Assembly: GCA_963774915.1 (NCBI GenBank)
Contig: CAVZGR010000006.1
Location: 13,463 to 77,462, forward strand
Length of the DNA: 64,000 nt
DNA from: an uncultured Acidimicrobiaceae bacterium
GTDB lineage: Bacteria > Actinomycetota > Acidimicrobiia > Acidimicrobiales > RAAP-2
Reading direction: 5' to 3'
Shown: one piece after another, positions 22,774 to 28,146 of the stretch
How positions within the stretch are numbered: position 1 is the first letter of the stretch
How the letters are laid out: each line of letters opens with the position of its first letter
The notes under the pieces: generated by a model
The model's input: the letters and a program-made list of their open reading frames with translations, nothing else
What the model was told of the DNA's origin: nothing
Database searches by the model: none
Position numbers and translations under genes: made by a program

Positions 22774-24135
22774 TCAGTAGCCGGCGCAGCCGTCCTGGTC
22801 GGGTGCGGCGAAGGGACCACCCAGATAGGCCGCGGCGAAGGCCACCGCCACTCGGATCTGTTGCAGGGGGGTGGCGTCGGCCGCGTCAGCCGGAAAGCCG
22901 AAGGTGTTGAACTCGTCCCAGTTGGTACGCGTGAACCCGAGCCCGCCGGCGAACTCACCGGCCTCGACGTTCCACCGTCCACCTTCCTCGCAGAGGTTGA
23001 CTCGTTCCCAGGCGCTGATCTGGGCGGCGGTGAGGCCGTAGTCGTCGGCGGCCGAGGTGTCGACGACCGCTGCGGCAACCGTGCTGTTGGCCAGCGAGCC
23101 GAAGTAACCGTCACCACCGAAGGCGAACGCGCCGCCATCAGAGGAGATGGCCAGGTAGCCGTCGGAGGAGGAGTCGAGGGCGATCATCGGCTTGTTGAGC
23201 GGGACGGCACCGGCCGATCCCAGGAAGGACGCGCCGCCGTAGGTGAACACGCCCCCGTTGGTCAAGAGCAGGCGGTAGCCGGACCCGTCGGCACCGATGG
23301 CTGCCGTTGGCAGTCCGTTGGTCCCGCCCGCGTAACCGGCCTGGCCGAAAGCGAACACCGACCCGTCGGCGGCCGCCTCCCAGTAGCCAAGGCCTCCGGC
23401 TGCCGGGGCCAGGCCCACGATCGGGCTTCCCGGCGACAGGCCGACCGCCGATCCGAAGTAGTGCGCATCACCGAAAGCGAAGACGCCGCCGTCGGCGGCC
23501 ACGATCCAGTAACCATGACCGTCGGGGGTGGGCTCGAGTCCGACCACCGGTTGGGCCAAATCGAGCCCGCCGGTCGACCCGTAGAACCCGGCGTCGCCGA
23601 AGGCGAAGACGCCACCGTCACTGGCCACCAACCAATAGCCGTTGCCGTTCGGCGTCGACGCGATGGCCACGATGGGCCGGTCCAACGGCAGCGAGGCCGT
23701 CGACCCGTAGTACTGGGCGTCGCCGAAGGTGAAGATGCCGCCGTCGGATCCGACCATCCAATAGCCGTTGCCCGACGGGGTGGCGGCCACGTCCACCACC
23801 GGAGCCTTGAGAACGAGTCCCCGGCCGGTCGGCCACGATGTTGGCGCCTGTCCGGGAGTGGCGGCGACGGCGGAGCCGACCGACAACGAGATGATGGCCG
23901 CAGCCCCAAGAAGTGCGACGAGAAGGCTTCCGCGCTTCGAGGCGACGGTTGCCGTACATGGGGTCGTCGGGCGCGGGGCCCGGTCGGTGATCGGCGGCAG
24001 TGTGTTGAGAGCGGGTACGTCGAAGTACAGAGCGAGCCATGAATGGCAAGGGGTGACCTTTCCGTGGTCGGTCGGCACGGCCGAAGGCGGCGATACCGAC
24101 GTTCTTCTGGTTGGGAGGACCCCACGTCTGCGCAT
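22774..24135 (-). CDS. Secreted six-repeat (GYW..DGG.F.FGDA.Y.GS) protein with a C-terminal Rpf-like transglycosylase domain
   Basis: Signal-like segment RGSLLVALLGAAAIISLSVGSAVAA. Six ~40-aa repeats follow (NGYWMVGSDGGIFTFGDAQYYGS, NGYWLVASDGGVFAFGDAGFYGS, HGYWIVAADGGVFAFGDAHYFGS and so on). The C-terminus reads WERVNLCEEGGRWNVEAGEFAGGLGFTRTNWDEF...QQIRVA...DGC, resembling the Rpf core W..CESGG.W...G.YGGLQF...TW. The start is uncertain (ATG 24135 or GTG 24078). Confidence 0.8.
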   Translation of the reverse strand: MRRRGVLPTRRTSVSPPSAVPTDHGKVTPCHSWLALYFDVPALNTLPPITDRAPRPTTPCTATVASKRGSLLVALLGAAAIISLSVGSAVAATPGQAPTSWPTGRGLVLKAPVVDVAATPSGNGYWMVGSDGGIFTFGDAQYYGSTASLPLDRPIVAIASTPNGNGYWLVASDGGVFAFGDAGFYGSTGGLDLAQPVVGLEPTPDGHGYWIVAADGGVFAFGDAHYFGSAVGLSPGSPIVGLAPAAGGLGYWEAAADGSVFAFGQAGYAGGTNGLPTAAIGADGSGYRLLLTNGGVFTYGGASFLGSAGAVPLNKPMIALDSSSDGYLAISSDGGAFAFGGDGYFGSLANSTVAAAVVDTSAADDYGLTAAQISAWERVNLCEEGGRWNVEAGEFAGGLGFTRTNWDEFNTFGFPADAADATPLQQIRVAVAFAAAYLGGPFAAPDQDGCAGY

Positions 24136-24411
24136 TCAAAACCCCAGCCGAGCACCGGGAAGGGTGTGACGGCCTGGCTATGAGAGCCGGGTGTGCTAGC
24201 GGGTTCTTACGTCCGTCAAGTGGTGGTTACGTTGAGCAATCCCCATTGGTGGTTGTGAGCGGTGCAGGTGCGTCGGCGCCAATCGTGAGCGGCGGCCGTC
24301 GGCGAAGTGCCTGCGAAGCCCGGCAAGATAGCGGTGCGGCCTGCGGCCCGTGAAATCGAGCTTTGCATTTGGTCACGCAGAGTGACCTGGGGATAAGTGG
24401 TATGACCCTGG

Positions 24412-25044
24412 TCAGAGAGTTGCGGCCAGTTCAAGCGCGGCCGCTGAAAAACCTCGACGGGGAGTGATGATCTCGTCGATCAGGCCGTACTTCTTGGCTT
24501 CTTCGGGCGTCATGAAATTGTCGCGATCAATGTCGGATTCGACTTGTTCGACGGAGCGGCCGCTGTGATGAGCGATGATCTCGGCCATCCGGCGCGTGGT
24601 GGCGAGAACTTCGCGCAGTTGGATCTCCATGTCCCGCGGTGCACCGCGCGCTCCGGCGGACCCCTGATGAATCATGATCCGGCAGTTGGGCAGTGCGAGC
24701 CGCTTGCCCGGCGCGCCGCCGGCCAGGATCATGGCCGCGGCCGACATTCCCATGCCCACGCAGATGGTGGACACCTCGGGTCGTACATGTTGCATCACGT
24801 CGTAGATGGCCATGCCGGCATAACCCATGCCGCCCGGCGAGTTGATGTACAGCGAGATGTCCTTGTCCGGATCCTGGGCCTCGAGGAAGAGCATCTGACT
24901 CACGATGAGGTTGGCGATCTGGTCGTCGACCTCCTGGCCCAAAAAGACGATGCGCTCGCGCAGCAGGAGCGAATAGATGTCGAAGGCGCGGTCGCCCCGC
25001 GGCGACTCCTGGACAACCGTCGGGATAAGCGACGCAGCGACCAC
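24412..25044 (-). CDS. clpP: ATP-dependent Clp protease proteolytic subunit ClpP (catalytic triad intact)
   Basis: [32 protein letters not shown]...YINSPGG...[16 protein letters not shown] (Ser), RIMIHQG (His), [13 protein letters not shown] (Asp). The GTG 25044 start is preceded by AAGGAGG (25056-25050) with a 5-nt spacer; the ORF is open to 25161. Confidence 0.9.
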
Positions 25045-25099
25045 GGTGACCTCCTTGGCCTCGGAACGCTCGACGGCGGGCGCCGTCATCGCTTTCATG

Positions 25100-25119
25100 A
25101 TATCTCGAATATGAGATAT
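25100..25119. promoter_or_regulatory. AT-rich perfect inverted repeat ATATCTC-N6-GAGATAT in the clpP / XRE divergent region
   Basis: Read directly. It overlaps a TATAGT hexamer (25117-25122) that could be a -10 for the plus-strand XRE gene, and lies 56-75 nt upstream of the clpP GTG. Confidence 0.4.
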
Positions 25120-25211
25120 AGTGACCGAGCCGTGGTGCAGCCAGCGAACGTCCGAACGCACCGTGATCCCGAGAGGCGCGCCGGGTCGGGCGCCGTTCGC
25201 CCGCGACCCCG

Positions 25212-25496
25212 GTGGCGCCGGTCATGAGCGGGCGCCGTCATGAAAGCGTGTTTCCTGGCTTTCGCGAGATGGCCGAGCGGCGGCGAGCGCTGAGTGCCGA
25301 GCTCACCGAGCGCCGTCGAGCGCTCGGACTGTCGCAGACCGAGGTGGCGGCACGCATGGGGACGTCCCAGTCGGCGGTGGCCCGTCTCGAATCGGGCTCC
25401 GGCGATGTCCGGCTGTCCACGGTCGAGCGCTACGCGGCTGCCGTCGGCCGGTCGCTCGACTGGTCGTTGAGCGCAAACAAAGGTGAAGCCCGATGA
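25212..25496 (+). CDS. XRE-family HTH regulator (ClgR/PopR-like by context)
   Basis: HTH motif [25 protein letters not shown]. The start is uncertain (GTG 25212, ATG 25224 or ATG 25269). The stop overlaps the next start as ATGA (25493-25496). Confidence 0.75.
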
Positions 25497-26113
25497 GCAT
25501 CGGTTGGCCCGGCGGCTCCGGTGGTGACGACGGGACCACCGAGTTTCGTCGGTCGTTGCGTGACCATCTCTTCGAGCGGCGGGTGGTGGTGGTGACCGGA
25601 CGGCTGGACCACGAAGTGGGCGGGCGGGCGGCCATCGAGCTCATGACCCTCGACGCCGATGGCGACGAGCCGATCCGCCTCCAGTTGAGCTGCTCCGACG
25701 GCGACCTCGATGCCGCGCTGTCACTCATGGACGTAGTGGAGCTGGTCGGCGTTCCCGTCGAGGCGCTCTGCATCGGTTGCGTCGGCGGCGCAGCCATCGG
25801 GGTCCTGGCCGTTGCCGATCGCCGTTTGGCCACGGTGACCACCAGCCTGCTGTTGCGCGACCCCGGCGACTCCTTCACCGGGTCCGCCCATGACCAGCAA
25901 CGGTGGGCGCAACATCGGGCCGACCGGTGGCGGACCTTCTGCGAACGGGTGTCCGGCTTCACCCACCGATCGTTCGACGAGGTCGAGGCCGACTTCGAGC
26001 GCGGACGTTTCCTCAGTGCCGCCGAGGCCATCGACTACGGTTTGATCGACGAGATCGCGCAGCAGACCTCGGCAGAGCGGCGCGGCCGTCTCGGCTTTCG
26101 TCCGGTCGGGTGA
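25493..26113 (+). CDS. ClpP-family paralogue lacking the Ser-His-Asp triad (ClpR-like, presumably non-catalytic)
   Basis: Collinear with ClpP: ERRVVVVTGRLD..., LSCSDGDLDAALSLMDVVELVGVPVEALCIGCVGGAAIGVL (Ser position is Gly), LLLRDP (His position is Arg), FERGRFLSAAEAIDYGLIDEI (Asp position is Gly). An SD-like AGGTGA lies 8 nt upstream of the ATG. Confidence 0.8.
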   Translation: MSIGWPGGSGGDDGTTEFRRSLRDHLFERRVVVVTGRLDHEVGGRAAIELMTLDADGDEPIRLQLSCSDGDLDAALSLMDVVELVGVPVEALCIGCVGGAAIGVLAVADRRLATVTTSLLLRDPGDSFTGSAHDQQRWAQHRADRWRTFCERVSGFTHRSFDEVEADFERGRFLSAAEAIDYGLIDEIAQQTSAERRGRLGFRPVG

Positions 26114-26245
26114 CCGCCATCTCGACGTAGCCGGGCGAGCGTCGCTCCGTGTGGACCGGCCGGGGATCCGCTCTCGGACCGGCGCCCACGCACCATCATG
26201 GACGGGGCCGTAAGGATCGGCCCCGGACGAACGGTAGGACCGACG

Positions 26246-27242
26246 ATGAGTGACACGTCCCAGGGTCCCGGTTGGTGGCTCGCCTCCGACGGCAAGTGGT
26301 ACTCACCCGAGCAGGCACCCGGCTACGAGCCGGCATCGGTCCCCGCCACTGCCCCGAGCACCATGCCCCAGCCGGGCGCGCTGCCGACCACGGGAACGCT
26401 CCCTCCGACGGCGCCGGTGGTAGCGAGCAGCTCCGGCCCGTCGACCGGCACGCTGCCGCCGACGGCCTACCCGCCACCCGGGGGTGCTCCACCGGCTGGC
26501 TACCCACCCGGTGGTGCTCCACCGGCTGGCTACCCACCTGGCACGTATCCGCCCGGGTCGTATCCGCCCGGCCCCGGCTACGCCTACCCGGGGCGGGCCA
26601 AGACGAGCGGGTTGGCCATTGCCGCTTTCGTCCTCTCGCTGCTCTGGATCTTCGGCCTCGGGTCGCTCCTCGCCGTCATCTTCGGCATCATCGCCCTCGT
26701 CACCATCAGCCGATCGCATGGGACGCGGCGCGGCCGCGGCTGGGCCATCGCCGGGCTCGTGATCGGTGCACTCGGGCTCATCCTCACCGTTGCCGTCTCG
26801 TTGGCCGTCAAGAACGCGGTCGCTGGCCACGACCTACCCCTACGGGCAGACCGTCTCGACCGACGATGGGATCACCGGCTTCACCAGTGTCACCGTGTAC
26901 TCGGTCACGACCGGGCTGCACGGACAGCAGACGTCGGGCGCCCTGCCCGGCACGTTCGCGGCGGCCAACGTACAGGTGTGTGTGGGCTCGGCCGGCATGC
27001 CCGATGTCAACGAGCACCTCGTCTTCTTCCTCCTCAAGACGTCGGGTGGCGACCTGCTGCCCGCCGAGCCCGAAGTCACCACCCAGTCACCCAACCTGTG
27101 GCATTCCGCGGTGAACTGGCCCGCCAATCAGTGCCAGCGGGGGTACGTGAGCTTCTTGGTCCCGTCCGGGGAGACGCCACAGGGTGTCCGCTACAACGGC
27201 GACATCCTCCATCCCATCGAATGGACGCCCTCGGGCAATTGA
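26246..27242 (+). pseudogene. GYF_2 / DUF4190 membrane protein with DUF4352-like C-domain, one frameshift
   Basis: N-terminus SQGPGWWLASDGKWYSPEQ, a Pro/Gly/Tyr-rich linker, then DUF4190-type helices (GLAIAAFVLSLLWIFGLGSLLAVIFGIIALV, GWAIAGLVIGALGLILTVAV). The frame switches near 26820. It continues TTYPYGQTVSTDDGITGFTSVTVYSV...QCQRGYVSFLVPSGE. Confidence 0.7.
26483..26542 (+). repeat. 30-bp tandem repeat (2 copies, 28/30 identical) encoding GAPPAGYPPG
   Basis: GGTGCTCCACCGGCTGGCTACCCACC(C/T)GG(T/C) at 26483-26512 and 26513-26542. Confidence 0.85.
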
Positions 27243-27414
27243 CGGGGACCTGGCCGCACCGGTTCGGTGCGGCTCGGGTGACTGTCATCATTGAGGGTGA
27301 CGGTCGCCGGCGGCCGTCGTTGATCCGAGGTGGCATGAGCGCACGCAACCGGCAAGGGGTGGTCCTGCTCCCTCGTCGCCAGATGACCTCCCTGGGCGCG
27401 TCACGGTTGGCGTC

Positions 27415-28146
27415 GTGACCGTCTATCTGGTCGGTGCCGGGCCCGGTCATCCCGGCCTGCTCACCGTGCGAGCCGCCGAGCTGCTGGCCTCGGCCGACGT
27501 GGTGGTCCACGACCGACTCATCAGCGAGGAGGTGCTGGACCTCGTGCCCGCCGGTTGCCAGCAAATCGATGTCGGCAAGGCCGCCGGCTGGTCACCCATC
27601 ACGCAAGAAGAGATCAATGCTCTGCTCGTCGAGCACGGGCGCAGCGGACGAGAGGTGGTGCGGCTCAAGGGGGGCGACCCCTACGTCTTCGGACGGGGTG
27701 GCGAGGAGGCCGCCGCCCTCCTCCAGGCGCAGGTTCCCTTCGAGGTCGTGCCCGGAGTGTCGGCTGCGTTGGCTGCTCCGGCCGCGGCCGGTATCCCGGT
27801 CACCATGCGTCATCGGGCCCTGTCCTTCACGGTGGTCACCGGTCACGAGGACGAGACGGGGCCGGGCGGAGTCGACTGGGAGGGATTGGCTCGAACCGGC
27901 ACCACGCTCGTGATCCTCATGGGTGCCTCTCGGATGGGGACGATCGCCCGACGACTGATGGCCGGCGGATTGGCCCCGACGACACCCGTGACCGCGGTGC
28001 GGTGGGCGACCACCTGCCATCAGGAGGTCGTGCGCACCGACCTGGCTTCGGTAGAGAAGGTGGAGCTCGAATCGCCGACCACCGTGGTGGTGGGGGCGGT
28101 GGCCGACCTCGACCTGCGGTCGCTCCCCGAAGGCGGGCACGGCTAG
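27415..28146 (+). CDS. cobA: Uroporphyrinogen-III C-methyltransferase (SUMT)
   Basis: VYLVGAGPGHPGLLTVRA..L..ADVVVHDRL, VVRLKGGDPYVFGRGGEE, VPGVSAALAAPAAAGIPVT. The start codon is GTG. Confidence 0.9.
   Translation: MTVYLVGAGPGHPGLLTVRAAELLASADVVVHDRLISEEVLDLVPAGCQQIDVGKAAGWSPITQEEINALLVEHGRSGREVVRLKGGDPYVFGRGGEEAAALLQAQVPFEVVPGVSAALAAPAAAGIPVTMRHRALSFTVVTGHEDETGPGGVDWEGLARTGTTLVILMGASRMGTIARRLMAGGLAPTTPVTAVRWATTCHQEVVRTDLASVEKVELESPTTVVVGAVADLDLRSLPEGGHG

Follow-up and report, generated by a model that had tools for sequence, protein, structure and literature searches.

We investigated a 64-kb stretch of DNA from an uncultured Acidimicrobiaceae bacterium (contig CAVZGR010000006.1 of assembly GCA_963774915.1; the whole stretch is called the window) with regard to a locus at positions 24412–26113, where a clpP gene faces a small regulator gene and a second, degenerate ClpP gene. 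The order in the window is clpP on the minus strand, a divergent gap of 167–179 bp, an XRE-family gene with a helix-turn-helix (HTH) domain on the plus strand and, on the same strand, the gene of a ClpP paralogue that lacks the catalytic triad. We refer to the triad-less paralogue as R and to the neighbouring live ClpP as P. An initial annotation of the window had put the gap at about 170–220 bp; the gap as such was found again, with the measured width given above and with a regulator start that is most likely ATG 25224. This start is preferred to GTG 25212 since homologues share the pattern M-x-E-R-R-H-x-x-V-F-P-G-F, and ATG 25269 was ruled out because a start there would leave out the conserved RRHxxVFPGF peptide, which is encoded further upstream.

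For comparison we scanned one genome per GTDB species, which yielded 242 loci, and compared the best 80 of these 242. Every one of the 80 stems from metagenome-assembled genomes (MAGs) of Acidimicrobiales or Acidimicrobiaceae. We observed the order live clpP (−), gap of 100–260 bp, XRE gene (+) and dead ClpP gene (+) in 79 of the 80 loci, the single exception (L019) being cut at a contig end, and found 62 metagenome loci with the same three-gene layout. As the gene order, the stop/start overlap of the two plus-strand genes and a palindrome in the gap recur in 79/80 genome loci and in the 62 metagenome loci, these features are not due to chance. The pairing of HTH gene and paralogue opposite a live clpP, to which the initial annotation had drawn attention, is thus conserved in other genomes across the order. 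The overlap itself was read as ATGA in the window, as claimed before; about 75 of 79 loci have it as RTGA (4 nt) or ATGnnTGA (8 nt), with a GGAGGA inside the final part of the regulator gene. Across the loci, the live ClpP is 76 to 94% identical to its counterpart in the window, the regulator 60 to 89% and the dead ClpP 39 to 87%. Compared with the closest relative (L001), the ratios of nonsynonymous to synonymous substitution rates (dN/dS) are 0.07, 0.14 and 0.21, respectively, and therefore indicate purifying selection on all three genes. The locus is single-copy, syntenic and vertically kept beside clpP across an order, and it is surrounded by housekeeping genes, with no mobile elements as neighbours. 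The module was also found in MAGs labelled ‘Actinobacteria bacterium’ and ‘Candidatus Dormibacteria’.

Next, we analyzed the loss of the triad in R, which is 27% identical to the live ClpP. Its best NCBIfam matches are generic ClpP subfamilies, all below cut-off. The collinearity of the 206-aa protein with ClpP, proposed in the initial annotation, is nevertheless borne out by its PF00574 match (E = 1.6e-23) and by a confident ClpP fold: the AlphaFold 2 (AF2) model, built with 39 homologues, has a predicted local distance difference test score (pLDDT) of 90.7 and a predicted template modeling (TM) score of 0.83, and Foldseek superposes it on ClpP structures with TM scores of 0.88–0.92 and 1.2–1.9 Å over about 175 residues. 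The Ser, His and Asp of E. coli ClpP (S97, H122 and D171) correspond to G99, R122 and G171 of R, exactly the three exchanges that had been read from the sequence before. Neither a profile alignment nor a structural alignment restores the triad, and as the sequence alignments and the confident AlphaFold superposition agree, its loss is not an alignment artefact. The changes cannot be a product of the indel problem in the window either, since the same changes occur family-wide in an intact open reading frame (ORF) with a dN/dS of 0.21.

The whole family around R shares this loss. A word-indexed search gave 149 R homologues, of which the best 120 are all without triad, and a profile search of 1.84 billion representatives gave 316 clusters matching R at E ≤ 1e-30, with a full triad in none of the best 147. 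The 121 locus translations contain no triad-bearing copy either, which argues against a simple decaying gene, so that all of about 390 relatives (268 database proteins and the 121 locus translations) lack it. Ser is almost invariably replaced by Gly (within GxVGGPAxG), the His position is variable and Asp has become Gly (within GR[F/Y]L). Further parts of the active protease are lost as well. The oxyanion loop INSPGG is replaced by LxLDCxDGxL, the N-terminal axial hairpin is missing (the N-terminus is short, and residues 1–12 are disordered and not conserved), and the docking pocket (Y60, Y62, F82 and others in E. coli) is polar and variable, with Y60 changed to T/H/E/R/Q, Y62 to Q/R/H and F49 to T (E. 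coli numbering), while F112, L114 and L189 have turned small or polar. The ring and handle core is kept, including G130/A132 of the handle strand; the residues at the inter-ring sensor positions (equivalents of E. coli E169/R170) are not conserved. N-terminal extensions of 40–77 aa in some family representatives were considered as fused HTH domains and rejected, as they consist of Pro-rich low-complexity sequence.

R ends in a flexible C-terminal tail that reads RRGRLGFRPVG in the window. Throughout the HTH-linked clade the linker varies in length and composition and the end is fixed as P-Φ-G-F-R-P-x-R-COOH, where Φ is a hydrophobic residue. We found Φ-G-F within the last 14 residues of 75 of 81 locus copies and of 105 database homologues. 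Gly and Phe are invariant in all 75 tails, whereas the Φ position holds I in 30 of them, M in 28, L in 11, V in 5 and F in one. Clp ATPases dock into the hydrophobic pockets of ClpP by a (L/I/V)-G-(F/L) tripeptide, which is LGF in actinobacterial ClpX and ClpC1 (PMC8745299, PMC4416901), and the LGF of the R tail matches this motif. Members of the R family without tail (176–195 aa, e.g. in Methylomirabilota) are stand-alone genes in the four contexts examined, with neither an HTH gene nor a clpP neighbour; tail, regulator and clpP adjacency thus travel together.

The live ClpP opposite R shows the reverse picture. The initial annotation had read it as a minus-strand ClpP with a GTG start and all catalytic contexts kept, and this was confirmed by its PF00574 match and by the aligned Ser, His and Asp. 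Triad and hydrophobic docking pocket are intact and the residues of the N-terminal axial loop are normal; 72 of 72 orthologues keep the triad, Y62, L23, L48, F/Y49, I90, L114, I189 and the canonical N-terminus. Its closest relatives in the PDB are S. aureus, B. subtilis and E. coli ClpP (E about 1e-71), and it is nearer to these single-copy ClpPs than to actinobacterial ClpP1 or ClpP2. Judged by these relationships, P is of the canonical single-ClpP type, the kind that works as homo-tetradecamer. As possible roles of R the initial annotation had listed a ring partner, adaptor or decoy that gates ClpP and a sensor domain for the regulator. Taken together, the LGF tail and the degenerate pocket of R, as read from the alignments, point to direct binding of the live ClpP.

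The regulator matches HTH_31 besides HTH_3. Its closest PDB relatives are the 434 repressor and HigA2/3, and HigA, MqsA and Y4mF antitoxins are among its PDB and NCBIfam relatives, which would place it in the 434-repressor/HigA type and not in the ClgR type. It is much more conserved than R: an alignment of 41 sequences contains 37 invariant columns, and in a database search the best 120 of 7895 matches at E ≤ 1e-5, a threshold that also lets in generic XRE proteins, are all at least 71% identical. In the AF2 model (pLDDT 81.6) residues 1–12 have no secondary structure (pLDDT about 54) and are followed by a long helix and the HTH. The invariant peptide at this disordered N-terminus has a pattern typical of short linear interaction or degron motifs and is a candidate partner-binding or degron motif. 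At the other end the protein reads ...GEAR or ...IEHE.

The inverted repeat in the gap, ATATCTC-N6-GAGATAT overlapping a TATAGT hexamer, is present as the initial annotation had reported, and both its conservation and its location on the two putative divergent −10 regions speak strongly for the auto- or co-regulation suggested there. The family consensus is an 18-bp palindrome, TATCTCA-N4-TGAGATA, with near-invariant bases, usually widened to (A/G)TTATCTCA-N4-TGAGATAAT. In most relatives the right half-site TGAGATAAT forms an extended −10 element (TGn plus GATAAT) that ends about 8 nt before the start codon of the regulator, which, with no Shine–Dalgarno sequence in between, implies a leaderless regulator mRNA. 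The mirrored left half-site is suitably placed as −10 of clpP and is followed by a short leader with a Shine–Dalgarno sequence. The window's own subclade has a leader of about 100 nt instead. No second copy of the palindrome was found in the 64-kb window or within ±6 kb in the 80 loci. An exact-pattern metagenome scan returned 114 matching stretches, of which 80 were examined: 62 are this module, 17 are unrelated low-GC DNA (GC 0.28–0.47) and one is a different locus (L130), so that 62 of the 63 high-GC exact matches lie at this module. A wider regulon was not detected, as the strict-pattern metagenome matches outside the module comprise this one paralogous XRE gene and the 17 low-GC chance matches. 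We argue that the regulator is a repressor because its site covers both −10 regions and because it is related to the 434 repressor and HigA; it would act through the palindrome.

The different locus just mentioned (L130:200-500, metagenome contig Ga0209511_1106315) carries the same palindrome ATTATCTCATATATGAGATAAG 6 nt upstream of the ATG of another XRE gene. The encoded protein has its HTH fused to a MurA/EPSP-like domain, and its recognition helix, TSQSAVVRIE, is nearly the same as that of the module regulator. As this gene carries both, the pairing of helix and palindrome appears common to a paralogous regulator family, and it offers independent support for the palindrome as the operator of the regulator. 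A generic sigma-70 scan of the locus gave no full −35/−10 match, a terminator scan was empty as well and no Rfam match was found in 24000–26500.

Table 1. Features of the clpP/XRE/R locus, with positions in the window
Feature	Position	Strand	Evidence or remark
Live clpP (P), 210 aa	24412–25044	−	PF00574 E = 2.7e-76; NCBIfam PRK00277 above cut-off
Shine–Dalgarno AAGGAGG, 5 nt ahead of the clpP GTG start	25050–25056	−	Direct sequence reading
Shared operator palindrome ATATCTC-GAATAT-GAGATAT (putative), over divergent −10 region	25100–25119		Present once in 78/81 loci
TATAGT, −10-like hexamer for HTH operon	25117–25122	+	Sequence reading; putative promoter
XRE-family regulator, 90 aa, probable start ATG 25224	25224–25496	+	HTH_3 E = 1.5e-13
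Regulator N-terminal peptide, invariant	25233–25262	+	R4, H6, F10, P11, G12, F13 fixed in 41 sequences
Regulator recognition-helix segment	25362–25391	+	Invariant across family
ATGA stop/start overlap of regulator and R, translational coupling	25493–25496	+	Sequence reading
Triad-less ClpP paralogue (R), 206 aa	25493–26113	+	PF00574 E = 1.6e-23
G99 in place of Ser (E. coli S97)	25787–25789	+	MAFFT with E. coli ClpP; phmmer alignments to PDB ClpPs
R122 in place of His (E. coli H122)	25856–25858	+	MAFFT with E. coli ClpP; phmmer alignments to PDB ClpPs
G171 in place of Asp (E. coli D171)	26003–26005	+	MAFFT with E. coli ClpP; phmmer alignments to PDB ClpPs
Flexible C-terminal tail of R; LGF codons 26090–26098	26057–26110	+	pLDDT about 60

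Several further observations concern the genes of the module. The live ClpP carries a C-terminal extension (24412–24468, minus strand) after ...IDDII, conserved in the L001–L080 orthologues with the consensus PRRG(L/V)xAP...L(E/Q)(A/V)A(x)(A/G)-COOH. Its Ala-rich end resembles Clp degrons (ssrA and the APVVSLAVA of ClgR), and judged by its sequence the extension could be a propeptide or an autoregulatory tag. No Clp ATPase gene was found in the 64-kb window by a Walker-A regular expression. In three loci (L205:2710-4133, L206:2475-4105 and L081:5001-5986) the dead ClpP gene is followed, with stop/start overlap, by a gene for a luciferase-like monooxygenase or a PNPOx-like protein, an arrangement that occurs both in the clade without tail and in a single HTH-linked module; luciferase-like monooxygenases and PNPOx-like proteins are typically flavin- or F420-dependent families. 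Two loci from MAGs labelled Candidatus Dormibacteria, another phylum (L200/L201, 3217–4898), contain the same module at a GC of 0.67 with a regulator that is 77% identical. Their dead copy keeps the His, has no Φ-G-F tail and starts 29 nt after the HTH gene with no overlap; this form of the module could reflect horizontal transfer, mis-binning or an older state. The frameshifted clpP, HTH or dead-ClpP genes that we found in long-read MAG loci (L038, L064, L075, L005, L021, L034, L045 and L062) result, as their other frames reveal, from single-base assembly indel errors and are neither fusions nor pseudogenes. For this reason the apparent HTH–ClpP fusions in L038, L064 and L075 were discarded as evidence of an interaction.

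In the neighbourhood of the module, the ORF downstream of R (26198–27418, plus strand) has a Pro-rich start and a DUF4190 membrane domain and continues in implausible Arg-rich sequence, with a protein-like ORF (26766–27242, plus strand) in another frame lying over it; this region may contain a frameshift or indel like those to which the initial annotation had referred. Downstream of clpP a 453-aa secreted protein is encoded (22774–24135, minus strand), with many ‘GYW...DGG(V/I)F.FG’ repeats and, at its C-terminus, a transglycosylase-like domain of the Rpf type (PF06737, E = 1.9e-9). Homologues of it occur a few kb from the module in several loci, with no fixed position. We also considered a link to defence systems and rejected it, as PADLOC gave no match for either ClpP and only generic HTH matches for the regulator.

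We interpret the locus as a three-gene module for ClpP control, in which the repressor silences both promoters and R binds the live ClpP via its LGF tail. We hold this reading, which is built on sequence comparison and models, tentatively, as it falls just short of being the probable one. In this module, clpP is read divergently from a bicistron that encodes a small 434/HigA-like XRE repressor and a translationally coupled pseudo-protease. Both promoters have their −10 region under one and the same 18-bp palindrome, so a repressor dimer on this single site would shut off clpP and its own operon together, and this common shut-off would keep P, R and the repressor co-regulated. R would place its C-terminal Φ-G-F tails in the intact pockets of the live ClpP, docking as a seven-fold cap or inside a mixed assembly, and would thereby either rival the ATPases or stand in for them, with an effect on ClpP gating or activity. 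More speculatively, the 1:1 coupled synthesis and the disordered N-terminal peptide of the repressor might report the state of P and R back to the repressor. In its most specific form, the proposal is that a heptameric R ring docks on the apical face of ClpP with seven LGF tails in seven ATPase pockets, a symmetry-matched and ATP-independent cap that opens the pore like an acyldepsipeptide (ADEP) or excludes ClpX/ClpC; the repressor would read the free or docked state of R via its N-terminal peptide, and through such a partner-switch clpP transcription would follow the occupancy of the pockets. This detailed version we consider unlikely.

Several observations weigh against tail-mediated docking under a shared repressor. 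Met occupies the Φ position in 28 of 75 tails, outside the published L/I/V set, and the tail is not obligatory, as L201 has the HTH gene but neither tail nor overlap. The target of R could be the adjacent ClpP or a second one: cultured Acidimicrobiaceae have one clpP between tig and clpX and another elsewhere (PMC10490939, supplement). The clpP of the module may thus be an accessory copy, which, by analogy, may bring it closer to clpP3P4/popR of Streptomyces. Part of the conservation of the palindrome could have another cause than a repressor site, namely two extended −10 elements placed back to back. Finally, the handle of R is well conserved and modelled as extended, so a stacked P7:R7 or R14 barrel fits equally well, and in a barrel of either kind the distal face of P would be out of reach for the tail.

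This last geometry belongs to the main rival of LGF docking, in which R is a ClpR-like structural subunit that forms a stacked P7:R7 barrel or mixed rings with the live ClpP, as in cyanobacterial ClpP3/R, in ClpP1P2 of Listeria and Pseudomonas or in ClpP1P2 of Mycobacterium tuberculosis and Streptomyces. The complex would have fewer (half) active sites and dock ATPases on the P face only, the HTH protein would be a local repressor and the tail would have an unrelated or secondary role. The confident ClpP fold of R with its extended handle and conserved G130/A132 agrees with a ring partner, and so does the control of P and R from one operator, as expected for parts of one complex. R resembles the non-docking ring of M. 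tuberculosis and Streptomyces ClpP1P2 in having no docking pocket and no axial loops, and the tail-less family members imply a function of the fold that does not require the tail. However, a purely structural subunit leaves unexplained why an invariant terminal Φ-G-F-R-P-x-R sits on a variable linker and is tied to the clpP/HTH context. The inter-ring sensor residues are not conserved in R, and the live ClpP is of the homo-tetradecamer type. We see in the ring partner a possibility of some weight, yet a doubtful one. The conserved 1:1 coupling, the invariant disordered peptide on the HTH protein and the far better conservation of the regulator compared to R would also suit a sensor or co-regulator, that is, an R in complex with the HTH protein (e.g. 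with the N-terminal peptide in its vestigial substrate cleft) and not stably part of ClpP complexes. This seems improbable to us, as R-family members occur in other phyla with no HTH gene at all, the LGF tail and the pocket contrast indicate ClpP as the partner, and the apparent HTH–R fusions, being frameshift artefacts, give no direct evidence of contact.

Gene order, overlap and a palindromic operator at the own promoter are likewise found in type II toxin–antitoxin loci, and HigA, MqsA and Y4mF antitoxins rank among the best relatives of the regulator. In such a pair a HigA-like antitoxin would neutralise a dominant-negative ClpP mimic, which poisons ClpP once the labile antitoxin is degraded. 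We regard this as very improbable: the partner is a ClpP-fold protein and no known toxin family, the operator covers the clpP promoter too, neither ClpP has a PADLOC match, and the locus is a single-copy syntenic one beside clpP across an order, under purifying selection and with no mobile-element neighbours. The idea that R is a duplicate in decay, on its way to a pseudogene, or an artefact of sequencing or of indels draws on the indel errors elsewhere in the window and in related long-read MAGs, but carries practically no weight. The ORF of R is intact, full-length and constrained (dN/dS 0.21), its substitutions recur throughout the family, in which GxVGGPAxG, GR[FY]L and the Φ-G-F tail stand out as motifs that are both new and conserved, and 316 representative clusters at E ≤ 1e-30 and a confident fold accompany them; by these conservation data, decay or artefact is refuted.

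Non-catalytic ClpP subunits are textbook knowledge only for cyanobacteria and plastids, and the regulation of actinobacterial clp genes is understood through the activators ClgR and PopR. In the full-text literature searched, whose coverage leaves out most subscription journals, we found neither the module nor any LGF-tailed ClpP paralogue described; likewise, the literature searched holds no description of an HTH plus dead-ClpP bicistron opposite a live clpP, in agreement with the initial annotation, to which none was known. A non-catalytic ClpP paralogue and an XRE regulator of clp genes are each of a known kind. Apparently new is the set, not described together before, of an operator shared with the live clpP, the coupling of regulator and pseudo-protease and an ATPase-like docking tripeptide on the C-terminus of the pseudo-protease. 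The module would represent an independent and widespread solution in soil Acidimicrobiia, built from a repressor of its own, a single operator common to both promoters and a pseudo-protease. The latter appears to have taken over the peptide with which the unfoldases dock, and this suggests that ClpP is controlled here in a manner not described so far. If the tail does bind the ClpP pockets, R would be nature's protein equivalent of the ADEP-type modulators of ClpP and the first ATPase-independent ClpP-binding ring, which would bear on the control of ClpP gating and on ClpP as an antibiotic target.

Of the systems described so far, the ClpR subunits of cyanobacteria, plastids and apicoplasts (PMC7966870, PMC4673316), which are ClpP paralogues with no catalytic function, come close to R in that both have the ClpP fold, have lost the triad and are kept by selection beside an active ClpP, with which they are co-expressed (for R, as the shared operator suggests). 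However, R occurs in non-photosynthetic Acidimicrobiia and has no specific affinity to ClpR models, generic ClpP models scoring better. It is divergent from clpP in an HTH operon and not part of a clpP3-clpR operon, and it differs further in its translational coupling to a repressor, its C-terminal Φ-G-F tail and its degenerate docking pocket.

The initial annotation had also compared the regulator to ClgR/PopR, and this comparison holds as an analogy (an XRE protein beside clpP) but not as membership, the regulator not being of ClgR type and its operator being different. Both systems have a small XRE regulator dedicated to clpP genes, and like popR the regulator gene adjoins the clpP genes it would control. 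ClgR and PopR are activators that use the GC-rich box WNNWMGCYNNNRGCGWWS and are degraded via a C-terminal Ala/Val tag (PMC2905415, PMC5352834, PMC9765437). The regulator of the module is instead paired with an AT-rich TATCTCA-N4-TGAGATA over the −10 regions, a repressor geometry, resembles the 434 repressor and HigA, closes with ...IEHE or ...GEAR and, in place of the degron, possesses an invariant peptide at its N-terminus. The box WNNWMGCYNNNRGCGWWS has no match in the intergenic region 25045–25223 with up to one mismatch allowed, and no ClgR structure is among the PDB matches of the regulator at E ≤ 0.01; with no Ala-Ala C-terminus in addition, membership was rejected. A degenerate ClgR-box pattern (at most one mismatch) gave 35 matches in the whole window compared to 11.6 expected from shuffles, an excess that is probably a codon-composition effect of GC-rich genes, because the matches near the locus all lie inside coding sequence.

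Asymmetric ClpP1P2 heterocomplexes are known from M. tuberculosis, Streptomyces, Listeria and P. aeruginosa (PMC4416901, PMC9765437, PMC12451819). Here, too, two ClpP paralogues share the labour, one ring providing catalysis or docking and the other having no usable ATPase pocket. However, both ClpP1P2 paralogues keep the triad or nearly so, their genes share an operon or lie at separate loci with no coupled regulator, and neither tail bears a docking tripeptide of the ATPase kind, whereas that of R does. HigA-like type II toxin–antitoxin loci share with the module an HTH gene that overlaps its partner gene and a palindromic operator at its own promoter, but the module contains no known toxin family and is not distributed in the patchy, mobile manner of such loci. 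What R shares with the docking loops of ClpX, ClpA and ClpC and with their ADEP mimics is a short peptide of hydrophobic residue, Gly and aromatic residue, borne by a flexible part of a ring-forming protein. In R this motif is located at the C-terminus of a ClpP-fold protein of presumed seven-fold symmetry, whereas in the ATPases it lies in a loop of a hexameric AAA+ unfoldase. An analogy for such terminal docking peptides is given by the C-terminal HbYX and GQYL tails of ATP-independent proteasome activators.

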